A stretch of DNA of 64,000 nucleotides, taken from the sequence record MT446412.1. One strand, given 5' to 3'. The stretch comes from Escherichia virus TH41. The position numbers were made by a program, and so were the translations under genes. The notes below the pieces were generated by a model. The model ran no database searches. It was not told the DNA's origin and saw only the letters and a list, made by a program, of their open reading frames with translations. Shown here in pieces: positions 10,849-44,199 of this stretch; positions within the stretch are counted from its first letter, which is position 1; each line of letters begins with the position of its first letter.

Positions 10849-11136
10849 ATGTTTATGACTACTTACTTTGATACACGTAAAAATTTCTGTGAAGTTGTTT
10901 TCTCTAAAAAAGGCCCTAATGTTCCTGCTGGGTGTGAACCAACACGCGATTCCATTAAGAACTATGTTGATGTAGTTTGCCCAGTTGAATTCAGGACTGT
11001 TAATGGACGTGATACTCTGGCAATCACCAAGCTTAGACGCGACATTGATATTGACCCAATTGCGGCGCGGGAAATTAATTCATCTGATATTAATGGCGGT
11101 AATGTTAAATCGCGCGGTTTCCTGACGAGGTTCTAA
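10849..11136 (+). CDS. Hypothetical protein
   Basis: 95 aa from ATG 10849 with RBS GAGGA 7 nt upstream; the track start at 10795 is a non-ATG upstream extension. Confidence 0.45.
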   Translation: MFMTTYFDTRKNFCEVVFSKKGPNVPAGCEPTRDSIKNYVDVVCPVEFRTVNGRDTLAITKLRRDIDIDPIAAREINSSDINGGNVKSRGFLTRF

Positions 11137-23348: not shown

Positions 23349-23360
23349 TATTTATAAATA
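23349..23360. promoter_or_regulatory. Divergent overlapping late promoters (TATTTATAAATA)
   Basis: TATAAATA on + (23353-23360, gene 26) and on - (23349-23356, gene 51) within one 12-nt element. Confidence 0.6.
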
Positions 23361-24391: not shown

Positions 24392-24416
24392 TGCTTTAAT
24401 TTTATGGCTGTATAAT
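24392..24416 (+). promoter_or_regulatory. Middle promoter (MotA box aaTGCTTTA, 12 nt, TATAAT) for uvsY
   Basis: MotA-box consensus at about -30 plus -10 hexamer; followed by conserved GGTTCTAGACCC. Confidence 0.55.
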
Positions 24417-24444
24417 GGTTCTAGACCCTTACATTGGATACATT

Positions 24445-25112: not shown

Positions 25113-25223
25113 ATGAAAAATATTAGTAAGATTCTCGACGAGATGGTTATCTCTGCAAACCGAATAACCGAAATTGTTAATGAGATGAAAGCTCGTGCTG
25201 CTATTATGAAGAGCACTAAATAG
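25113..25223 (+). CDS. Small hypothetical protein (36 aa; not in ORF track)
   Basis: ATG with RBS AAGGAAAA; start adjacent to upstream stop. Confidence 0.3.
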   Translation: MKNISKILDEMVISANRITEIVNEMKARAAIMKSTK

Positions 25224-29650: not shown

Positions 29651-29678
29651 TTTGCTTCAAATAAAATTGTGGTATAAT
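29651..29678 (+). promoter_or_regulatory. Middle promoter (MotA box TTTGCTTCA, 13 nt, TATAAT) upstream of rnlB
   Basis: MotA-box consensus plus -10; followed by GGTTCTAGACCCC as at 24417. Confidence 0.5.
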
Positions 29679-29776
29679 GGTTCTAGACCCCTTTGCGACT
29701 ATTAATTCCTTTCAGAGAAAGAAAGTATAGTGGGTCTAATTTATAATGATATTTATAACATCAAAAGTGAGAGATT

Positions 29777-30784
29777 ATGTTTAAGAAATACAACAGCCTT
29801 GAAAATCACTATAACAACAAGTTCATTGAAAAGATTCGCCTGCAAGGCTTCACCAGCGGTGAATGGGTAGCGCGTGAAAAGATTCATGGCACCAACTTTT
29901 CATTAATCATTGAACAAGACAATGTAACATGTGCGAAACGCACTGGACCTATCTTGCCTGCAGAAGATTTCTATGGTTATGAAATTGTATTAAAGAACTA
30001 TGCAGATTCTATTAAATCTGTGCAGAAACTTTTGCAGGATATTAATTACCAGGCATACCAGATTTATGGTGAGTTTGCCGGGGCAGGTATCCAGAAGAAT
30101 GTGGATTACGGTGATAAAGATTTTTATGTATTTGATATCCGCGTTACTAAAGAAGATGGTTTTGAATCCGTCCTGACTGATACCTTGATGGAAGCCTTCT
30201 GTATTATCCACAAGTTTAAGGTTGCTCCGCGGCTGGCTACTGGAAGTTTTGAAGACTTGATTAAGCTCCCTAATGACCTGGATTCTGTTGTCCCTGATTA
30301 CAATTTTACAGTGGATAACGCGGGTTTGACTACAGCAAATACCACTGATTTTGATGCAAAGGTGGAAGGTAAAGTATTCACTGCTGAAGGATTTGTATTA
30401 AAACCTGATGTTCCTGCATGGTTACCTAACGGTGAGCGCGTAGCGATTAAATGCAAGAACTCTAAATTCAGTGAAAAGAAAAAGTCCGATAAGCCTATTA
30501 AGGCTGCAGTGGTTCTGAGCCAAGATGATATGGATTTGCTGTGGAATTTCACTGATTATGTGACTGTTAACCGTATCAACAATGTTATCAGTAAAATTGG
30601 GGAAGTAACACCTAAGGATTTTGGAAAGGTAATGGGGTTAACAGTCCAAGATATTCTAGAAGAAGCGGGTCGTGAAGGTCTTGAATTATCCCTGACGGAA
30701 AATCCTGTTGAAGTTAAAAAGCAACTCATCGCAAATGTAAGAGAAACATTAAGACATGTTTGGATTGCATTAATTAGTGAATAA
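29777..30784 (+). CDS. rnlB: RNA ligase 2 (gp24.1)
   Basis: [20 protein letters not shown]...[11 protein letters not shown] (nucleotidyltransferase KxHG)...[21 protein letters not shown] closely matches recalled T4 Rnl2. Confidence 0.9.
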
Positions 30785-30786
30785 AA

Positions 30787-30812
30787 AAGGGCCGTAAGGC
30801 CCTTATTCTTTT
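30787..30812. terminator. Bidirectional terminator between rnlB and gene 24 paralog
   Basis: gggccGTAAggccc with A-run upstream and T-run downstream. Confidence 0.65.
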
Positions 30813-32086
30813 TCCAGTGGCGGAAGTTTAACACCAAGATAAGAACTCAATTGGCTTTGGTTGGCCATCTTATCCATATCAGCACCATCAATAATGCGAG
30901 CTTCTTTATCGTCTTTAGCAACGGTGTAAGGGTTCGCAGTCAATGCATAACGAGCTAATAACGCAACAGTAGGCTGCAAGCTTTCAGGGTCAACAATAAC
31001 CTTGAATTCCCCTACCGAGGTATCACCCTCATCATCAACTTCGCTAAGACCTTCCGTATAAGGCGCATAATACAAAGATGCGACCGTCTGACCTTCACCC
31101 ATATCAGCATTTACACCAACAATAACATAATCACATGGACTATTCATATCTGCATAAAGAGGCAAACCGTTCTTCAGAACGCCATAGGCTAATTCATCCT
31201 GGTCTTCCTTTTTCTCAACCCAGCCAGAAGCTGCTAAAATAGCTGCACAGCGAGAAGAAGCGACTGCATATGTACCAGCAAACGAAGTCTGACGTTGAAC
31301 TGCAGAATTCATTTCACACATATAATAATACAGGGTTCGCGCCCGGTCCTGGGCGTTATCATATTTCGGGTCAGTTAGATTCAATACACCTTTTTCAGAA
31401 ACACCTTGCACCTTGAAGCGAGAACTGACAGTAATAAGGGATTGCAGTACATCCTTATTAATTTCCTCTGCCATTTGAATGCCGAGAATATTATCAATGA
31501 AATCCGTTGCATCGAAACCGTTTGCTTCCAGGTCTTGAGCAAGCTCGACAGTTAAAGAAGTTTTCAGCTTTCTGGATTTAACTTCAGTCTGCCATTTATC
31601 AATACGAAAACCAGCTTCAGCAATTTCGGGATGACCTTTTTCAAATTTATCAGTGAAAGCTGCATCTGACATCATTCTTATATGGCCCGCCGCAATGGCT
31701 TCAGAAATAACTTCGCCCAAATCAGTTTCGAGAGTCCCGGCGAATGGTGATGCTTCCAAAACTTTGAACACAACACTTTCAAACTGGAACATATCGCCGA
31801 CTGCATAAGCTTCGTCTTTGTTCGTAAATTCTGGGATATTCTTACGCTCGAACATACCAATCTGACCTGCAAATGTTGCTCCACCAAGATAAGTCATTTT
31901 ATCATCTGGGTTCAGAACACGAACACCATACAGCGCAGCAACAGGCTGAGTAGTTTTCTGTTCAGCCACGAGTGCTTTAAAAATTCGTTTATTCGTGGCC
32001 TGAGTATAAGAAAGCAAATTAGGACGGGCGACCTGGTTGGCCGCCGTTAATGTTGATTCGTGAATTAGTGCGTTAATCTTTTGCAT
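30803..32086 (-). CDS. 24: Head vertex protein gp24, divergent second copy
   Basis: 427 aa; QPVAALYGV, KSRKLKT.LTVELAQDLEANGF, EINKDVLQSLITVS, ANPYTVAKDDKEARIID shared with the adjacent copy and T4 gp24; start abuts the upstream copy's stop (TAAATG). Confidence 0.8.
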   Translation of the reverse strand: MQKINALIHESTLTAANQVARPNLLSYTQATNKRIFKALVAEQKTTQPVAALYGVRVLNPDDKMTYLGGATFAGQIGMFERKNIPEFTNKDEAYAVGDMFQFESVVFKVLEASPFAGTLETDLGEVISEAIAAGHIRMMSDAAFTDKFEKGHPEIAEAGFRIDKWQTEVKSRKLKTSLTVELAQDLEANGFDATDFIDNILGIQMAEEINKDVLQSLITVSSRFKVQGVSEKGVLNLTDPKYDNAQDRARTLYYYMCEMNSAVQRQTSFAGTYAVASSRCAAILAASGWVEKKEDQDELAYGVLKNGLPLYADMNSPCDYVIVGVNADMGEGQTVASLYYAPYTEGLSEVDDEGDTSVGEFKVIVDPESLQPTVALLARYALTANPYTVAKDDKEARIIDGADMDKMANQSQLSSYLGVKLPPLEKE

Positions 32087-33367
32087 TTACGCCTCATAAA
32101 TGATTGGCGGAAGTTTAACACCGAGCAGATAAGACATATTGCTCTGACCGGCCATTAAATCCATATTGGTTGCATCGATAATACGAGCTTCTTTATCGTC
32201 TTTAGCAACGGTGTACGGGTTAGCTGAAAGTGCATAACGAACCATCAGAGAGATAGCCGGTTGCAAACTGTCAGGGTCCACAATGACCTTAAACGCGCCC
32301 ACGTGTTCTTCATCATCTAAGTCCAGGCCTTCGGTATAAGGAGCATAGAAGATTGAGCCTACGACTTCATTTCCGCCATAATTTTCTTTAACGCCAACGG
32401 TTACATAATCTAATGGACTGTTAACATCACAGAATACAGGAAGACCATTAATCAAATAACCGTATGCTGTTTCAGGAAGCCATTGTTCATCTTCAGGTTT
32501 ATGCTTCAGCCAACCAGAACCGGCCAGCATAGCAGCAACACGGCTAGAGGCAACAACAAAGGTACCGGAATAAGATGTAGTTTTCTGAATCTCGGAGTTC
32601 ATTTCGCAAACCAGTTCGTACAGTTTACGTGCGCCTTCTGGAGCTGCATCATATGTTAAATCGATGACGCCATTGTCAGAAACCCCAGTTACTTTATAAC
32701 GCTTGGAAACGGTAATAAGAGACTGAAGAACATCTTTGTTAATTTCATCTGCCATAATAGTGGCAAGCAAGTCTTCCAGGAAAGCAGGAGCATTAAACCC
32801 ATTTGCTTCCATATCCTGAGCAAGCTCAACAGTTAATGCAGTTTTCAATTTACGTGTTTTAACCGGAGCATTCCATTTGTTAACCTGGAATACGGCATTG
32901 CTAATTTCAACATCACCGGCTTCAAATTTCTCGGTGTGCGCCGCATCAGGAACCAAACGAATGGTTAATGCAATAAGACCTTCTTGCAGAACATCGGATA
33001 ATACAGTTTCGGTAGTCGATGCAAACGGATTATCAACCAGAGCTTTATAAACGGTATTCTGAAATTTAATGTATCCGCCTTTAGCTACGGCCTGAGTTGG
33101 AGTTGTAAATTCCGGAATTGTTTCACGGTCTTTTGAACCAACTTCACCACCGTAAACGGCACCGGTTTGGAAACTGAATTCATTATCAGGAGTAAGATAT
33201 TTAACACCGTACAGAGCCGCAACTGGCTGGTTCGTACGTTGTTCAGCGATAATATCGCGGTAAATCAATTTGGTTGTAGCGCGGGTCAAAGCAACAAGAT
33301 TCGGGCGGCCCAATGAGTTGCTGGTAGTAGTAGTTGACTCGCGCAGTAATTTGTTAATCTTTGCCAT
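32087..33367 (-). CDS. 24: Head vertex protein gp24, T4-like copy
   Basis: 426 aa; N-terminus MAKINKLLRESTTTTSNSLGRPNLVALTRATTKLIY matches recalled T4 gp24 closely. Confidence 0.85.
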   Translation of the reverse strand: MAKINKLLRESTTTTSNSLGRPNLVALTRATTKLIYRDIIAEQRTNQPVAALYGVKYLTPDNEFSFQTGAVYGGEVGSKDRETIPEFTTPTQAVAKGGYIKFQNTVYKALVDNPFASTTETVLSDVLQEGLIALTIRLVPDAAHTEKFEAGDVEISNAVFQVNKWNAPVKTRKLKTALTVELAQDMEANGFNAPAFLEDLLATIMADEINKDVLQSLITVSKRYKVTGVSDNGVIDLTYDAAPEGARKLYELVCEMNSEIQKTTSYSGTFVVASSRVAAMLAGSGWLKHKPEDEQWLPETAYGYLINGLPVFCDVNSPLDYVTVGVKENYGGNEVVGSIFYAPYTEGLDLDDEEHVGAFKVIVDPDSLQPAISLMVRYALSANPYTVAKDDKEARIIDATNMDLMAGQSNMSYLLGVKLPPIIYEA

Positions 33368-33810: not shown

Positions 33811-35370
33811 TTAAATTCCTTTAACATATACGCGGCGGAAGTAACCGTTCAAGCCGAGGCTATTAACGATGTCCGGCATACCATTCTGAATGCGCTTGGT
33901 CGGAGCCTGAGCAGCAGGGTCAGCAAACGGGTTGATACCGATACCGTAACGGGTTTTGAAGCCCATAACCGGCTGGAAGTTTTTCGGGTCAGAGCCACGC
34001 AGCGGGGTCAGTGCAACATATGGTGCGTAGTAGATACCAGCATCCATTTCGTTAGCGCCTTTGTAACCGATGGTGAAGTAATCTGCACGAGCATACTGGT
34101 CGATATAGACACGGTATTTGCCACCCAGAACACCAGCGAACACAGCTTTAGTGGTGTCAACGTTGAAACCTTTACCCAGACCCTGAGCAGCATAACTTAC
34201 AGAAGTATCAACAGCAGCCAGTACGTTAACTACGTTACGGGAAGCGATGATGAAGTTACCTGCACCACGACCGGTCTGACGAGCGATTTCAGCGGCTTCT
34301 TTATCAATCTGGAACAGTAAAGCTTTGAAGCTTTCACCAGCCCAACGAGCACCACGGATATCAATCGGGTCCTGGAAGTCAAACACACCAGCTTTAGCGC
34401 CAACGGTGTTGGTCATACCAGATTTACCAACCTGTGCGGAGTAGTTAATCCAATCGATAACTTCGCGGTTGATTTCCAGCATAATTTCGGTAGCCAGAAT
34501 ACCACTCAATTCGGCATCAGCATCCATACCGTGAACAGCGCGCAGGTCCTGTGCCAGTTCGATGGAGTAGCTTGCTTTCAGCTGACGGGATTTAGCTTCG
34601 ATAACTTGTTTGTCGATGCGGAAGCCCATTTCGTTCCACGGGTTATCAGAGGAACCGTTAAAACCTTCTTGCAGTTCGGCGATGGAGGTAGCCATACCTT
34701 CAGCCAGTTCAGCCAGCTGACCAGCTTCAACCAGAGCGGTAACAGCAGCGTCAAGTTTAGCAGCGTCAGTAGCAGCAGCATCAACAGTTACAGCTTCAAC
34801 AGCCTGGAAGTGTGCAGAACCAGTTGCTTCGAAGAAGTGAGAATAAATTTTACCAACTTCCAGAACTTTGCTTGCAGCCAGTGCTTCAAAAGTCTGAGCA
34901 GCGCCCTGACCAGAGAACATAGCGTTCGGAGCATACATCGGGTGGAAAGCTTCTTTAGCACCAGCAGCGACAGGGTCTTTACCGTAAACTGCACGCAGGG
35001 CAAATACCTGGCCAGTCGGGTTGTTCAGAGGCTGTACGCCACAAATATCAAACGCAATCAGATGCGGGATAGCACGACGAACCATACCCATAACTGCCGG
35101 CCCAATCTGAGTTACTGCACCAGAGGTCTGGCCAGCGGCGATATTGGTAGCATCATAACCATGGTCACCACCGATTTCAGCTTCGGTCAGGAAAGAACCA
35201 AATGCTTCGGAGATTTTTTCATCACGGTATTCAGGAGCGGTCAGGATATCTTGTTCCTGGTTTTCAAAGATTTTAGCGATGATAGCTTGTTTAGAAGCAC
35301 CAACGATTTCAGGAAGAGCTTCGTTTTCCAGCAGAGCGGACCATTTTTGAACTAATGCATTCTTTTTCAT
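33811..35370 (-). CDS. 23: Major capsid protein gp23
   Basis: 519 aa (T4 gp23 521 aa); N-terminal propeptide-like region and strong overall resemblance to recalled gp23. Confidence 0.9.
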   Translation of the reverse strand: MKKNALVQKWSALLENEALPEIVGASKQAIIAKIFENQEQDILTAPEYRDEKISEAFGSFLTEAEIGGDHGYDATNIAAGQTSGAVTQIGPAVMGMVRRAIPHLIAFDICGVQPLNNPTGQVFALRAVYGKDPVAAGAKEAFHPMYAPNAMFSGQGAAQTFEALAASKVLEVGKIYSHFFEATGSAHFQAVEAVTVDAAATDAAKLDAAVTALVEAGQLAELAEGMATSIAELQEGFNGSSDNPWNEMGFRIDKQVIEAKSRQLKASYSIELAQDLRAVHGMDADAELSGILATEIMLEINREVIDWINYSAQVGKSGMTNTVGAKAGVFDFQDPIDIRGARWAGESFKALLFQIDKEAAEIARQTGRGAGNFIIASRNVVNVLAAVDTSVSYAAQGLGKGFNVDTTKAVFAGVLGGKYRVYIDQYARADYFTIGYKGANEMDAGIYYAPYVALTPLRGSDPKNFQPVMGFKTRYGIGINPFADPAAQAPTKRIQNGMPDIVNSLGLNGYFRRVYVKGI

Positions 35371-37309: not shown

Positions 37310-37560
37310 TATTCATCGTCCTCATCATCGTCGTCGCCTTCGTCAGCGTCATCAGATTCTTTTTTGTCTTTCTTTTCTGCTTTACCGTCGTCCTTGTCTT
37401 CATCTTCTTTAGGCTCTTCGCCTTCAATCATGATGGAACGTGCAATTTCAATCTTACGTTCTTCAATCAAACTACCGCATACTGGGCCAATGTTTTCAGC
37501 AAAATATTTGCGAACGGCTACGAGGTCGTTTGATTTAATGGCTTCAAATAAATCATCCAT
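37309..37560 (-). CDS. 67: Prohead core protein gp67
   Basis: 83 aa with highly acidic C-terminus; synteny. Confidence 0.6.
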
Positions 37561-39134
37561 TAGAAATCCTCTTCTTCTTCTTCAGGGTTTTGGAAACGAG
37601 CCTCTTTGGACTCCAATTCAATTTGCTTAGCTTCTTGATTAATTTCTTCATCAGACATCTGGAGGAAATCCTTCATCGCCGTTTGATGCGAAATATATTT
37701 ACCGATAAACGGTTCAGCCATCGTTAGCATATTGATTCTGCGTTCCATGATTTCTGCATCTTTCATTTCGGTGAAATAGCTATCACGGTTGAACGTAACT
37801 TTAATATTATTTAGTTCCTTTTCCCATTCCTCTTCTGAAATAATTTTTTTCAGGATAAGGTTGGTTTTAAGCGGGTCGAGGAAAACTTCTTCAAATTTAT
37901 TCTGTAGCTGTCGAATCCATTTAGAGAAATTCAATTCATCGCGAGTAATTGTCGCGCCCGCATCAAACATAACGCCACTGTTTTGGTCATTAGGGATACG
38001 AGATAATGGAATTCGGAGAGCCTGATATAGGTTGTTCTTAAACCAGCGAACATCGTCCATATCCGACATGCCTTGTGCACCCGGGAGTGTATCAACTTCG
38101 GTGACTGCTTTACCATCACGACGTTGCAACCAATAGTCTTCTGTCATTGACATGTTGTGCTGTTGGTTTTTGATTTTACCCGTAGTTGCATCATATACGA
38201 CACGGTTTTTCATCGTGTTCATAATATGTTGCATGTGTGCTGCTGCTTTACGAGACGGCATATTCCCGGTATCGATATAAAAGACTCGGCGGTCTGGGGC
38301 ACGAGTTATACGATAAATGACTAAAGCATCTTCTAATAGTTTTAATTGGTTTGCAGGTTTAATTGCTCGTTGCAAGTATCCGATGATATTCTTGCCACAG
38401 CAATCAAGTAATCCAGAATGCGCATATACAATCGCCGCACGAGGAATTTTTATTTTAGTACCTGCTTCATATATACGACCATCGGCACAATAACTTTCAT
38501 GACCAGTATCGTATACAAAATATTCTCTGTAACCGTCGACAATTTTTGTACCGTTTTCCATGCGTGTAACGATTTCACGGATGAACTGGATTTGTCTTGG
38601 GTCAAGGCGACGAAGTTCTTGAACACCATCTTTAAGTTTTGATGGGTTGATAATTTTGTGGAAGAAAATTCGAGAATCCACATACCAACGTTTAAAATGG
38701 TCAGAACCTTTACGCTCGAAATTAAGGAGGTTATTGACTTCCAAAAATTCTTCGAGGATTCGGTCTTTAATTTTCTGACTAAATTCGGTAGCATCAAGGT
38801 TAAGAGCTACAACATCTTTACCGTCTTCAAAAACGATAGCATCAGACACAATTTCTTGCACTGCGTTATCAACTTCATAATTATTTAGTAAGTTGCGGTA
38901 GGTGTCAATTAATTCCCTGGTATTTTTTACTTCAGGTTCATTGCTCCCGAACATCTGTTGCATCAATGCATTATACGGGACGTTTTGTTCTTGTGACTCA
39001 ATTTCACGAGCCCCATCATCAAACTTCGGCCCGGTCATTGACTCTAAATTATTTTTTTCTTGTTGCTTATATTCTTGTTCATCTTCTTTAGCCCAAGGCT
39101 TAAGAAAATTTAGTATTGTGTTAAAACCTGCCAT
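37560..39134 (-). CDS. 20: Portal vertex protein gp20
   Basis: 524 aa, same length as T4 gp20; synteny between 67 and 19. Confidence 0.9.
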
Positions 39135-39182
39135 TAGAGTCTCCGAAGTTTGGGAAATGAGGCCGAAGCCTCATAATAACTT

Positions 39183-39190
39183 TATTTATA
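39183..39190 (-). promoter_or_regulatory. Late promoter (minus strand) for gene 20
   Basis: TATAAATA followed by a GC hairpin (about 39156-39173) in the 5' leader. Confidence 0.45.
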
Positions 39191-39191
39191 C

Positions 39192-39683
39192 TTATTCCCA
39201 CCAGTCAATTGCGAACGTTGCTTCGAACGTTTCAATTTCGTTATTACTGTCCCAATCCATCTGGACTTCCCCAACGTTGGTTGGCCACATGCCGGTAATA
39301 ACAACTTCTTTCGTAACAGTTTTGCCATCACGATGGAACTGGCGGACAGTAGCAGTTTTCTTATAATCAGCAGGAGCTGCACCGGTAATTTCGTTAGTCA
39401 TACCGTGACACAGATTTTGCCAATCAACAATTGCTTGACGAACTTTATGAGCATCGTCGTTATAAATCGTAATAGTCCAGTCATCAAATGTACGGTCACC
39501 CGCTACGTTGATTTTACGGTTCATGTAACCGACCGGAACTTTTTCTACAATGCCTGCTGGCATCGGGGCTGCTTTACAATGGAAAGCAAAGTTTTTACCC
39601 AGGAATGGGATTTCGACTTCGAACAGGTTAGGGCGAGCAAAGTCGCCGGATTCGAAAGCGCGTGTGATATCGGTCAACTCCAT
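39192..39683 (-). CDS. 19: Tail tube protein gp19
   Basis: TRAFESGDFARPNLFEVEI...GIVEKVPVGYMNRKINVAGDRTFDDW...GMWPTNVGEVQMDWDSNNEIETFEATFAIDWWE closely matches recalled T4 gp19; start at internal ATG 39683 with RBS GGAG. Confidence 0.9.
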   Translation of the reverse strand: MELTDITRAFESGDFARPNLFEVEIPFLGKNFAFHCKAAPMPAGIVEKVPVGYMNRKINVAGDRTFDDWTITIYNDDAHKVRQAIVDWQNLCHGMTNEITGAAPADYKKTATVRQFHRDGKTVTKEVVITGMWPTNVGEVQMDWDSNNEIETFEATFAIDWWE

Positions 39684-39735
39684 TAAGGAATCCTCTTTAT
39701 AGACACAGGTCGCGCGAACGCGTCCCTGATGCATG

Positions 39736-39743
39736 TATTTATA
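39736..39743 (-). promoter_or_regulatory. Late promoter (minus strand) for gene 19
   Basis: TATAAATA about 50 nt upstream of ATG 39683. Confidence 0.45.
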
Positions 39744-39816
39744 CTAGGTAATATGATTCATCATCTCAAGATAATGGCTTCCCAGAATCAACCACAGGAG
39801 TCCGTAGAACCGATTA

Positions 39817-39842
39817 TGCTTTTATTTATAACACTGTATAAT
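39817..39842 (+). promoter_or_regulatory. Middle-promoter-like element oriented antisense to genes 18/19, inside a 10-bp inverted repeat
   Basis: taTGCTTTT box, 13 nt, TATAAT, GGTTCTACGG; ccgtagaacc (39802-39811) and ggttctacgg (39843-39852) form a perfect inverted repeat; a minus-strand TATAAATA (39823-39830) overlaps it. Confidence 0.35.
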
Positions 39843-39883
39843 GGTTCTACGGTTTCTAACTGATTAATTCTAAGCGATGATAA

Positions 39884-41863
39884 TTATTGTGGTCCAATCA
39901 GCTCATCGAAATTAGCACCGGTGCTTGTTGCTACGAAATTAAGCGTGATGTAGTTGATGCTGCGCGCAGGTTTGAAATAAATGCTAGCAACAAACTCATT
40001 TCGGTCTATGACCGACGGGGTGTTGTTAGTAGTATCACAAACCACACGACCTTCATAAATGCCACCGAGCGCACGAATACCATCCAAGTATTGAGAAGTT
40101 TCCATACGGAATGATGCACGAGTGAAGTTATCGTTAAGCTCAAACAGTTTATATTTGGATGCGTCACCGATATTTTTCTTCAGCATATTCGTAAGACGGC
40201 GAACGTTGATATGGTCCATCGGAGATGGAACTTTAGTTGCAGTCTTATCACCATACAGAACAAAACCATCACCACCTGCGAAACCAACAACCGGGTTGAT
40301 AGCTTCCTGATACATGCGGTCACGTTGGGTCTGACGTGGTTCAACAGCCAATTTCAGAACGTTCAGAATCTGGCCACGGTTATAACCTGCCGGAGACATC
40401 CAAGGCTGAGAAACATCATCAGTACGAGCACACAGTCCAGCCATGTCAGCTGCCAGAGGAACCCAACGGTTAACGTCGTTATATTTATCATACTGATATT
40501 TATAGTTGCCATCAATCGCTGCATAAGTCGTGCTGATATTCATATTATCAGTATCAAATGCACCAGCACCTGTACGCCAGTCAATCAGGTTATCCACTGC
40601 ACGGGTCAGAGGAACGTTAACCAACAGACCTTTCGGCGGGGAAATGAATGCCAAGCAATCCTGACGTTCGTCAGCAATAGAAACCACGTGCTTCTGAACA
40701 GTGGAAGCGGTCGCATCACCTTCACCAGCACAAGCACCAGCGATAAGCAGGTTGATATGCAGAGCTTCACGGTCAGCGAACAGGTCCCAACCTTGCATCA
40801 AATCACCAGCGGTAATCTTATCGTTTGCAGAAATACCACCAGACAGATTGATGATACCACTGAAGCCTACAGGCCAGTTGCGAGATGTTGCATAGATGTA
40901 GTTGGAAGTACCTTTTGCAAAGTAGTCATCCAGGTAAATGTTATTACCATAAACATCTTTTTCGCCCTGCTTAGTAGACAAAACAACGTTTTCGACGATT
41001 GCACCATCGCGGCGAACGATAATTGCATATTGGTTTTCGGTCTGAGGACCATAGTTAAACACTGCACGAGCTATAGAAGCGCGGGAACCACCACCGGGGA
41101 AAATATCCAGATTTGCAGTTGCGCCTTTTTCAAATTCAGCTTTGGATACGATTTCAACTTCAAGAGTCGAACCAATTTCACCAGGATAAAGAGCAACAAC
41201 ACCCGGCATTGCATATTTTGCCAATGATGCCTGGAATTCCAGAGAAGTAATTGCTTCTTCACTGTTTTCTGCTTCAGTCAACAGAATGCCAGAATCGGTA
41301 ACAATTTTCCCGACAGTGATGGTACCAGATACACCGGAAGAAGTGGTCGTAACTTCTGCAGTCCATGCACTGCCCAAATTAGGATACTGATTAATAGTTT
41401 TAGCAAATGCAATAATCTTATTGGTAGGAATAAAGATTGCCAGAATTTTACCATCAACATCGACCTTGGTCACACGGCCAGCCGGTTCAACAACAGTCTG
41501 GTTGTGTTTAACTTGAATAACATCACCGACAGCATAGTTTGTACCAGCAGTTACGATGGTAGTTTCAATATTGCCAGCAATAGGGGATGCGTTTTTAGCT
41601 TCGTCACGGTTAACAACACGTACAGTACGGAGGTCGTTACCATATTGCAGGAAGTTCATCCCACTCATAAAGTAATCTGCTGTTTCATTATTCGGACCAC
41701 CAAACAAATCAACAAGTTCAACTTCGTTTGTAATCTGAGTTACCTGGAAAGCTGGGCCCCACTGGAATTTACCAACCAGCGCCGCACGACCCGTCGCGTT
41801 ACGAACAACAGTGCTTTGGACCGTTGTTTCTTTGAGCTCAATGCCCGGAGATAATAAAGCCAT
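39884..41863 (-). CDS. 18: Tail sheath protein gp18
   Basis: 659 aa, identical length to T4 gp18, N-terminus MALLSPGIELKETTVQSTVV. Confidence 0.9.
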   Translation of the reverse strand: MALLSPGIELKETTVQSTVVRNATGRAALVGKFQWGPAFQVTQITNEVELVDLFGGPNNETADYFMSGMNFLQYGNDLRTVRVVNRDEAKNASPIAGNIETTIVTAGTNYAVGDVIQVKHNQTVVEPAGRVTKVDVDGKILAIFIPTNKIIAFAKTINQYPNLGSAWTAEVTTTSSGVSGTITVGKIVTDSGILLTEAENSEEAITSLEFQASLAKYAMPGVVALYPGEIGSTLEVEIVSKAEFEKGATANLDIFPGGGSRASIARAVFNYGPQTENQYAIIVRRDGAIVENVVLSTKQGEKDVYGNNIYLDDYFAKGTSNYIYATSRNWPVGFSGIINLSGGISANDKITAGDLMQGWDLFADREALHINLLIAGACAGEGDATASTVQKHVVSIADERQDCLAFISPPKGLLVNVPLTRAVDNLIDWRTGAGAFDTDNMNISTTYAAIDGNYKYQYDKYNDVNRWVPLAADMAGLCARTDDVSQPWMSPAGYNRGQILNVLKLAVEPRQTQRDRMYQEAINPVVGFAGGDGFVLYGDKTATKVPSPMDHINVRRLTNMLKKNIGDASKYKLFELNDNFTRASFRMETSQYLDGIRALGGIYEGRVVCDTTNNTPSVIDRNEFVASIYFKPARSINYITLNFVATSTGANFDELIGPQ

Positions 41864-41892: not shown

Positions 41893-44199
<2,307 letters not shown>

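Follow-up and report, generated by a model that had tools for sequence, protein, structure and literature searches.

The region between the late genes 19 and 18 of Escherichia virus TH41 was analyzed within a stretch of 64,000 nucleotides of record MT446412.1 (the window, meaning this whole stretch). Its 197 bp (39687-39883) hold an element in which a middle-type promoter on the plus strand, a late promoter on the minus strand and a hairpin following gene 18 lie inside one another. With modest confidence, we read this element as a composite control module of the Gaprivervirus/Dhakavirus clade, in which three standard T4 devices are nested rather than placed in tandem. All of its parts are devices known from T4, and the nested layout is specific to one small phage group. 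An earlier note made from the letters of the window had offered three alternatives, namely, a promoter for antisense RNA, a relic of a promoter cassette, and a stem-loop acting on the late transcript; the evidence partly supports a combination of these and not any single one. The element has the following components.

39814-39823, plus strand: MotA box TTATGCTTTT, matching 9/10 positions of (a/t)(a/t)(a/t)TGCTTtA, with TGCTT at 39817-21
39837-39842, plus strand: perfect -10 element TATAAT, 13 bp downstream of the MotA box; predicted start at ~39849 (A)
39830->39823, minus strand: distal late promoter TATAAATA, within the spacer of the plus-strand promoter; predicted start at ~39817
39743->39736, minus strand: proximal late promoter TATAAATA, ~50 nt upstream of the gene 19 ATG
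39802-39811: left arm CCGTAGAACC of a perfect 10-bp inverted repeat
39843-39852: right arm GGTTCTACGG, 100% complementary to the left arm, the two being 31 nt apart
39861-39874, minus strand: 5' arm of the outer helix on the late RNA, beginning 9 nt past the gene 18 stop and pairing with 39781-94
39781-39801, minus strand: 3' arm of the outer helix (39781-94) plus a conserved CAGGAG (39796-801)

In T4-type middle promoters, a MotA box, (a/t)(a/t)(a/t)TGCTTtA, is centered at -30 and lies 12 +/- 1 bp from a sigma-70 -10 element, TAtaaT (PMC2988021). The plus-strand promoter of the 18/19 region agrees with this rule in its MotA box, its -10 element and the spacing between them, and the combination TGCTT-N13-17-TATAAT has four matches in the window, against 0.33 expected. 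Its orientation is antisense to the late genes 18 and 19, as the earlier note had recognized in describing a middle-promoter-like repeat on this strand between the two genes, and the right arm of the inverted repeat doubles as its discriminator and start region. The genes for MotA and AsiA both lie outside the window; that the phage encodes them is taken from the annotation of Escherichia phage VR20, a phage sharing 98% identity with the window at the 18/19 locus and having annotated motA, asiA, gp55, gp33, and gp45. At the level of sequence, the proposal of an antisense promoter is thus supported by the near-complete MotA box, the 13-bp spacer, the perfect TATAAT, the MotA/AsiA annotation and the retention of the motifs in two genera. 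From these features, we infer a MotA/AsiA-dependent middle promoter that would give a noncoding RNA antisense to the 3' part of gene 18.

No credible open reading frame (ORF) was found downstream of the plus-strand promoter, and two small ORFs touching the element were rejected as genes. A 44-aa ORF on the plus strand (39729-39863) runs across the element. The pEC-M719-6WT.2 record annotates it as a hypothetical protein, and one is also listed over this stretch in the records of UPEC07 and P8; the ORF is almost certainly spurious, lacking a Shine-Dalgarno sequence and being reduced to 12 codons in VR7. The other, a 15-aa ORF from the ATG of the MotA box, was discarded because its spacing to AGGAG is not conserved.

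The overlapping minus-strand late promoter, also part of the earlier description, was confirmed as the distal TATAAATA. This motif has 19 matches in the window, compared with 4.85 expected. The distal copy agrees with T4-type late promoters in having TATAAATA at -13 to -6, and the gp55, gp33, and gp45 that go with such promoters are among the annotated VR20 proteins. It is invariant in eight aligned Gaprivervirus sequences and is the sole TATAAATA upstream of 19.1-19 in VR26. T4 likewise has two late promoters in its 18/19 region. The MotA box abuts the distal TATAAATA, and the predicted polymerase footprints of the middle and late promoters overlap by ~18 bp. Elsewhere in the window (23349-23360), the palindrome TATTTATAAATA creates overlapping TATAAATA motifs on both strands, an arrangement of back-to-back late promoters.

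The perfect 10-bp inverted repeat that had been described as bracketing the promoter is present and encloses both promoters, but it is longer than the earlier note had it: the stem extends inward (39813-17/39838-42) and outward (39781-94/39861-74). In the inward extension, ATTAT at 39813-17 pairs with ATAAT at 39838-42, the last five bases of the -10 element, and G39812 is bulged. The whole structure is an imperfect hairpin of ~95 nt (39781-39874), of which the 10-bp inverted repeat forms the inner helix. Local folding gave z scores of -4.5 on the minus strand and -6.4 on the plus strand, with 0 of 200 shuffles as stable. Among six window-type variants, the 14 outer pairs (39861-74 with 39781-94) are 96% paired; 25 of the 84 outer-helix cells are G.U, which is valid on minus-strand RNA only and becomes a C.A mismatch on the plus strand or in DNA. 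On the minus strand, 97% of cells are paired in these variants, and one column pair shows CG, UG, and UA. The G.U pairs that work on the minus strand only, together with this level of pairing, favor a role in the late (minus-strand) RNA, although the test is weak. With predicted starts at ~39849 (plus) and ~39817 (minus), neither promoter's own transcript would hold both arms, so that only RNA reading through from gene 18 would form the hairpin.

Position gives a further indication. In 10 of the 10 T4-like 18/19 regions examined, a stable stem-loop starts no more than 16 nt from the gene 18 stop, usually abutting TATAAATA; in these regions, the motif often stands directly behind the stem-loop. 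The window hairpin, which starts 9 nt past the stop, is therefore the positional equivalent of the other T4-like post-gene-18 stem-loops. In VR7, the same core is bracketed by an outer helix of differing sequence (CAGUAAAUGUA/UACAUUUAUUG), and in Dhakavirus, the core is bracketed by AUCCCAGGC/GCCUGGGAU plus GUAAU/AUUGC, unrelated in sequence to the window. The bracketing architecture thus appears to be maintained while the sequence of the outer helix changes. The suggested stem-loop on the late transcript draws its support from this position, from the differing outer helices and from the strand-specific G.U pairs.

At blastn sensitivity, the 18/19 element was found in 33 Gaprivervirus records only, and its motifs are retained in all of them. 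The earlier note had asked for a comparison with the 18-19 region of T4 and relatives and regarded lack of conservation of the inverted repeat as the outcome that would speak against it. The repeat is conserved: in the alignment of eight Gaprivervirus sequences, both arms, the MotA box, TATAAATA, and the -10 element are identical in seven. Variation falls in the flanks and in the part of the spacer outside TATAAATA, with 1/23 variable columns in the motifs versus 4/13 in the neighboring core (Fisher p = 0.047; eight sequences). VR26 has a 12-13-nt alignment gap at the left arm, three differences in the right arm and unrelated flanks; despite the missing arm and the differing flanks, 34/36 core bases are retained. 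It also carries a separate GC hairpin, GGGGAUGAAAGUCCCC, immediately after gene 18. In Dhakavirus (IME281, JS98, VR5, and Bp7), GGTATAATGGTTTTAGG occupies the same position, with a degenerate box, TACGCTGTAA (CGCTG), at matching spacing, and 51 Dhakavirus records match the Dhakavirus 18/19 intergenic region at >=93% identity. A search of IMG/VR for more divergent copies returned VR20, VR25, and VR26 only, the same search in JGI metagenomes returned none, and an exact-protein look-up of gp19 gave one contig, which does not include the intergenic region.

Several observations weigh against a composite module. In Dhakavirus, the in-loop TATAAATA is not conserved and the surrounding intergenic sequence is unrelated, so that the feature conserved across the two genera is the plus-strand promoter and not the late promoter or a particular stem. 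No antisense TGCTT..TATAAT was found in the 18/19 region of T4, Mosigvirus, Kanagawavirus, Gelderlandvirus, Jiaodavirus, Karamvirus, or Slopekvirus, and T4 also lacks the inverted repeat at this position; the absence of the antisense promoter from T4 and the six other genera indicates that it is dispensable for the 18-19 unit. Taken alone, the 10-bp inverted repeat is within chance, as perfect 10-bp inverted repeats with a loop of <=40 nt gave seven seeds at four loci in the window versus 3.1 +/- 2.3 in shuffled sequence. The hairpin shows no significant covariation (398/500 shuffles reach the observed score; six closely related sequences), and the total folding energy is about equal on the two strands and is uninformative for the choice of strand. 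Furthermore, the hairpin is not a canonical terminator: an intrinsic (Rho-independent) terminator, defined by a G+C-rich stem, a short loop and a U-tract behind them, was rejected because the minus-strand stem is followed by ACUCCUG, with no U-tract on the late strand. On the plus strand, the stem is followed by only UUUCU, and the loop is 16-31 nt. Rfam covariance models gave no match at E <= 1 in 39500-40100.

What the sequences establish is the anatomy of the element, its family relationships and its conservation; promoter activity, the role of the hairpin and any regulatory effect of the antisense RNA we infer, along the following lines. In the middle period, the MotA/AsiA-dependent promoter would fire rightwards from ~39849, entering gene 18 at its 3' end, and yield a noncoding antisense ("anti-late") RNA made before the late switch. 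As gp55 replaces sigma-70/AsiA/MotA, the site would switch: since the middle and late footprints overlap, only one could be occupied at a time, and the site would toggle from antisense (middle) to sense (late) transcription. The inner TATAAATA (39830->23) and the proximal copy (39743->36) would then start late mRNA for gene 19, and transcripts from the inner promoter, having no 5' arm, would form no hairpin. In contrast, late RNA reading through gene 18 would fold from 39874 to 39781 into the ~95-nt hairpin, the most likely role of which, judging from its position and from the general behavior of stem-loops, is to protect or create the mRNA 3' end of gene 18 and to insulate the gene 19 promoters. 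The antisense RNA may silence premature late RNA, prime replication or have no effect. In T4, 22 of 150 start sites mapped by differential RNA sequencing (dRNA-seq) are antisense.

The 18/19 promoter belongs to a family of related copies. The earlier note was right to use the word "repeat": the window contains exactly three occurrences of TATAATGGTTCTA (24411, 29673, and 39837), and 39808-49 is 74% identical to 24382-423. The two paralogous copies in the window are these.

24392-24423, plus strand: copy upstream of uvsY, orthologue of T4 PuvsY/oriF
29653-29685, plus strand: copy upstream of a 335-aa ORF (29777-30784), T4 PrnlB orthologue by position

Elsewhere in its genome, VR20 has a further copy in sense orientation upstream of nrdC.6. 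Two other VR20 copies, in the srd/modA intergenic region (plus strand, ~10990-11040 of VR20 stretch L019) and between genes 3 and 2 (plus strand, ~25130-25180 of VR20 stretch L021, corresponding to 75130-75180 of the record and lying ~50 nt past the window's right end), point against both of their neighbors. The family has at least six copies. The P34i homologue inside gene 34 carries TATAATGGTCCCA and is also directed against its host gene, and ordinary VR20 middle promoters lack the GGTTCTA extension. A comparable bracketing fold is absent from the six other family copies (mononucleotide-shuffle z of -2.3 to +1.2), and the hairpin was on that ground rejected as part of a mobile cassette. Only the gene 3/gene 2 copy approaches the 18/19 fold, via a different repeat that overlaps its own -10 element.

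That repeat consists of TCAGTGTTAT and ATAACACTGA (VR20 record, ~75150-75210), the left arm being the one that overlaps the -10 element, and its 9-mer ATAACACTG recurs in the spacer of the 18/19 copy (39828-36). An endonuclease gene stands beside the gene 3/gene 2 copy in VR7 (checked; MobB-like) and, by annotation, in VR25 and some Dhakaviruses; in VR7, the promoter faces the 3' end of the adjoining endonuclease gene, which is the same geometry as at the VR7 18/19 locus. Behind the PrnlB-type copy stands an inverted repeat, TAGACCC (29684-90)/GGGTCTA (29732-38), which would give a 5' stem-loop in the transcript; a minus-strand TATAAATA comes next, at 29750-57.

Comparison with Jiaodavirus bears on how the arrangement arose. 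The left half of the Jiaodavirus intergenic region aligns clearly with the window, and the promoter-bearing ~80-95 nt are extra DNA in the window, with an ancestral GC hairpin (CCCCAG..CTGGGG) on one side and the stop codon of gene 18 on the other. CCCAG at 39781-85 and CAGGAG at 39796-801 in the window are probably a relic of the ancestral post-gene-18 hairpin seen in Jiaodavirus. The junction of the extra DNA is also the insertion site of the 19.1 gene, the product of which is an HNH-like putative homing endonuclease (...GAYQLDHKVSI...NL..WE.N..K motif, matching phrog_5104) with weak matches to endonuclease VII and homing-endonuclease families. The 19.1 gene is present in 236 phage records, typically, where checked, at coordinates fitting the 18/19 intergenic region. 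In VR7 and PST, it lies between gene 18 and the hairpin, while homologues (35-41% identity) in VR26 and Bp7 lie on the element's other side. Its coordinates in the stretches compared are as follows.

VR7, stretch L001, 1280-1885: 19.1 gene
VR26, stretch L009, 359-1042: 19.1 homologue
Bp7, stretch L025, 482-1153: 19.1 homologue
PST, stretch L031, 451-1056: 19.1 gene

These relationships also suit the most serious alternative, which is possible though clearly the less probable reading: that the promoter is an orphan copy, left over or placed ectopically by recombination or past homing-endonuclease traffic, without function and either silent or the source of harmless antisense RNA. The inverted repeat would then have arisen secondarily, e.g., by a quasi-palindrome templated mutation restoring the gene 18 hairpin. 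Paralogues from which such a copy could derive exist, the closest being the srd/modA copy (37/49) and PuvsY (37/51), and the srd/modA and gene 3/gene 2 copies are likewise directed against neighbors. The promoter is part of a segment that Jiaodavirus lacks, at the 19.1 insertion site of PST and VR7; homing-endonuclease genes flank the element on either side (VR7, VR26, and Bp7) and flank the gene 3/gene 2 copy as well. Ectopic recombination of promoter repeats has been proposed for PeSL/PmSL cassettes, and that literature ties promoter repeats to indels (Arbiol 2010; Comeau 2014); standing in an insertion hotspot, the 18/19 element may itself stem from such an event. The lack of a downstream ORF and the absence of the promoter from T4 point the same way. 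However, the motifs are kept in all 33 Gaprivervirus records and in the four aligned Dhakavirus sequences while flanks and spacer vary. Introduction of the promoter by the 19.1 gene was rejected, as 19.1 of the Tequatrovirus PST sits between gene 18 and a T4-type hairpin and does not bring a TGCTT..TATAAT core along. The relic of a promoter cassette considered in the earlier note is therefore plausible as an origin, given the paralogues, the extra DNA and the homing-endonuclease site, but conservation argues against mere debris.

Replication offers another explanation for a middle promoter without a gene, and an unlikely one: an R-loop origin of the oriF/oriG type, in which RNA from the middle promoter would stay annealed in A+T-rich DNA downstream and prime the leading strand. 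Each of oriF and oriG needs ~100 bp comprising a MotA-dependent promoter and an A+T-rich unwinding element (PMC3016281). The two paralogues nearest to the 18/19 promoter include the oriF (PuvsY) orthologue, the oriG primer RNA runs opposite to the late gene 34, and the 18/19 plus-strand transcript is predicted to be noncoding. Positions +1 to +50 are 68% A+T, with a ΔG of -59.5 kcal/mol that falls in the least-stable 11% of 50-bp windows (T4 oriF region, least-stable 5%; oriG unwinding region, least-stable 2%), a value compatible with an unwinding element but ordinary for an intergenic region and not distinctive. Moreover, none of the known T4 origins lies near genes 18-19, and the family members PrnlB and PnrdC.6 are plain gene promoters. 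GC skew gave no signal and is uninformative; none is expected in T4-type genomes. An extension of this idea, in which the TATAATGGTTCTA subfamily (PuvsY/oriF and the orphans at 18/19, srd/modA, and gene 3/gene 2) would comprise promoters dedicated to noncoding priming or antisense RNA in the Gaprivervirus/Dhakavirus clade and 18/19 would be an extra R-loop origin in the late tail block, is equally doubtful.

It is very improbable that the inverted repeat works as double-stranded DNA, be it as a cruciform, as a site where a dimeric regulator of both promoters binds, as the ends of a miniature transposon or as part of a promoter switch that inverts. Perfect 10-bp arms lie symmetrically around two divergent promoters and both strands fold equally well, as such an element would have it, but the outer helix requires G.U pairs, an RNA property, and the other family copies have no such repeat. 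The switch and the transposon were rejected: the core has the same orientation in 33/33 records, a spacer of 31 bp is too short for recombinase-mediated inversion, and VR26 is missing one arm only and not the whole 51 bp, so that there is no "empty site." Least probable of all is a translational timing hairpin of the e/soc/I-TevI type, in which a ribosome-binding site would be hidden on read-through RNA and RNA from the inner late promoter would be translatable; a late promoter inside the hairpin, giving RNA without the 5' arm, fits that architecture, but ribosome-binding-site sequestration is contradicted by the sequence, as the 3' arm GGUUCUACGG and what follows hold no Shine-Dalgarno sequence or start codon, and the gene 19 ribosome-binding site lies ~110 nt further downstream, unpaired with the hairpin.

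The window is Gaprivervirus-type DNA (T4-type coliphage, Tevenvirinae), megablast of 39100-40500 giving 98% identity to Escherichia phages VR20, P479, and CJ20. The genes around the element are the following; as all four lie on the minus strand, this is the late strand.

41896-43728, minus strand: gene 17
39884-41863, minus strand: gene 18, tail sheath, 659 aa; stop codon at 39884-39886
39192-39686, minus strand: gene 19, tail tube, 164 aa; ATG at 39686-84
37560-39134, minus strand: gene 20, portal

Gene 18 of the window contains a 338-aa antisense ORF (40211-41227, plus strand), and there is an open run of 370 codons in the codon-aligned antisense frame. The ORF was rejected as a real gene and looks like a by-product of codon bias: TTA, CTA, and TCA codons number 4 in the window gene 18 versus 37 in T4 gene 18, the longest antisense open stretch of which is 75 codons. 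Gene 23 likewise has an antisense ORF, of 274 aa (34531-35355). Near-identical GC stem-loops with A-/T-run flanks (AAAAAGGGACCTTCGGGTCCCTTT...) occur in the window at 17102-37, 29065-100, 30780-815, 33762-97, and 53466-501 and also at 14630-68/46859-97; they look like bidirectional terminators, and two copies abut TATAAATA. The adjacent minus-strand ORFs 30803-32086 (427 aa) and 32087-33367 (426 aa) are 74% identical over 198 nt (30818-31015/32105-32302) and look like tandem paralogues in the gene 24 position.

If the plus-strand promoter is active, the composite module would produce a programmed RNA antisense to the tail-sheath gene and would turn to sense transcription at the late switch, a compact case of temporal control via overlapping promoters of two classes. 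It would also offer a way into the long-standing puzzle of the anti-late RNA made by T-even phages. If the promoter is inactive, what is left is a common type of intercistronic hairpin, its late promoters and the relic of another promoter. The locus also illustrates how a promoter repeat can come to lie within a preexisting RNA hairpin at an insertion hotspot for homing endonucleases, and it is thus relevant to the diversification of T4-type genomes within structural modules that are conserved in other respects.

Among known systems, the MotA/AsiA middle promoters PuvsY and PrnlB of T4, both defined by experiment, share with the 18/19 promoter the MotA box at -30, the 12 +/- 1-bp spacing and the -10 TATAAT, and the phage's own orthologues of both share the extended TATAATGGTTCTA; unlike the T4 promoters, the 18/19 copy has no downstream gene and is aimed against late genes. 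None of the 58 middle promoters in the published T4 list falls within the late structural block, coordinates 75,393 to 109,763. T4 P34i, annotated inside gene 34 of the T4 record as oriG (ori34) with "primer RNA opposite direction of gene 34," resembles the 18/19 promoter in being a middle promoter in a late region with a noncoding transcript opposing a late gene and in its -10 context, gTATAATGGT. It differs in lying within coding sequence and in being a proven origin, whereas the 18/19 promoter stands between genes and within a hairpin, with a late promoter overlapping it.

PeSL and PmSL (Arbiol 2010; Comeau 2014), the latter described in phage nt-1, likewise combine a repeated promoter and a stem-loop near indels. 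A PeSL has its stem-loop immediately ahead of the promoter and a gene with its Shine-Dalgarno sequence behind, whereas the 18/19 stem encloses a promoter that leads into no gene; the 18/19 locus also differs in lying in a conserved structural block and in having family copies elsewhere that lack a stem. Membership was rejected because the arms flank the promoter on both sides and no gene is downstream, although the repeat and its proximity to indels agree. T4 e, soc, I-TevI, and segB also have a late promoter inside a hairpin, with late-initiated RNA unable to form the structure, but the 18/19 hairpin sequesters no ribosome-binding site. A further counterpart is the stem-loop with late promoter found after gene 18 in T4-like genera, which has the same position and the same association with TATAAATA, together with two late promoters as in T4. 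In those genera, a short GC-rich hairpin abuts the promoter; in the window, the hairpin is ~95 nt long and rich in A/U and G.U pairs, and the promoter lies in its apical part.

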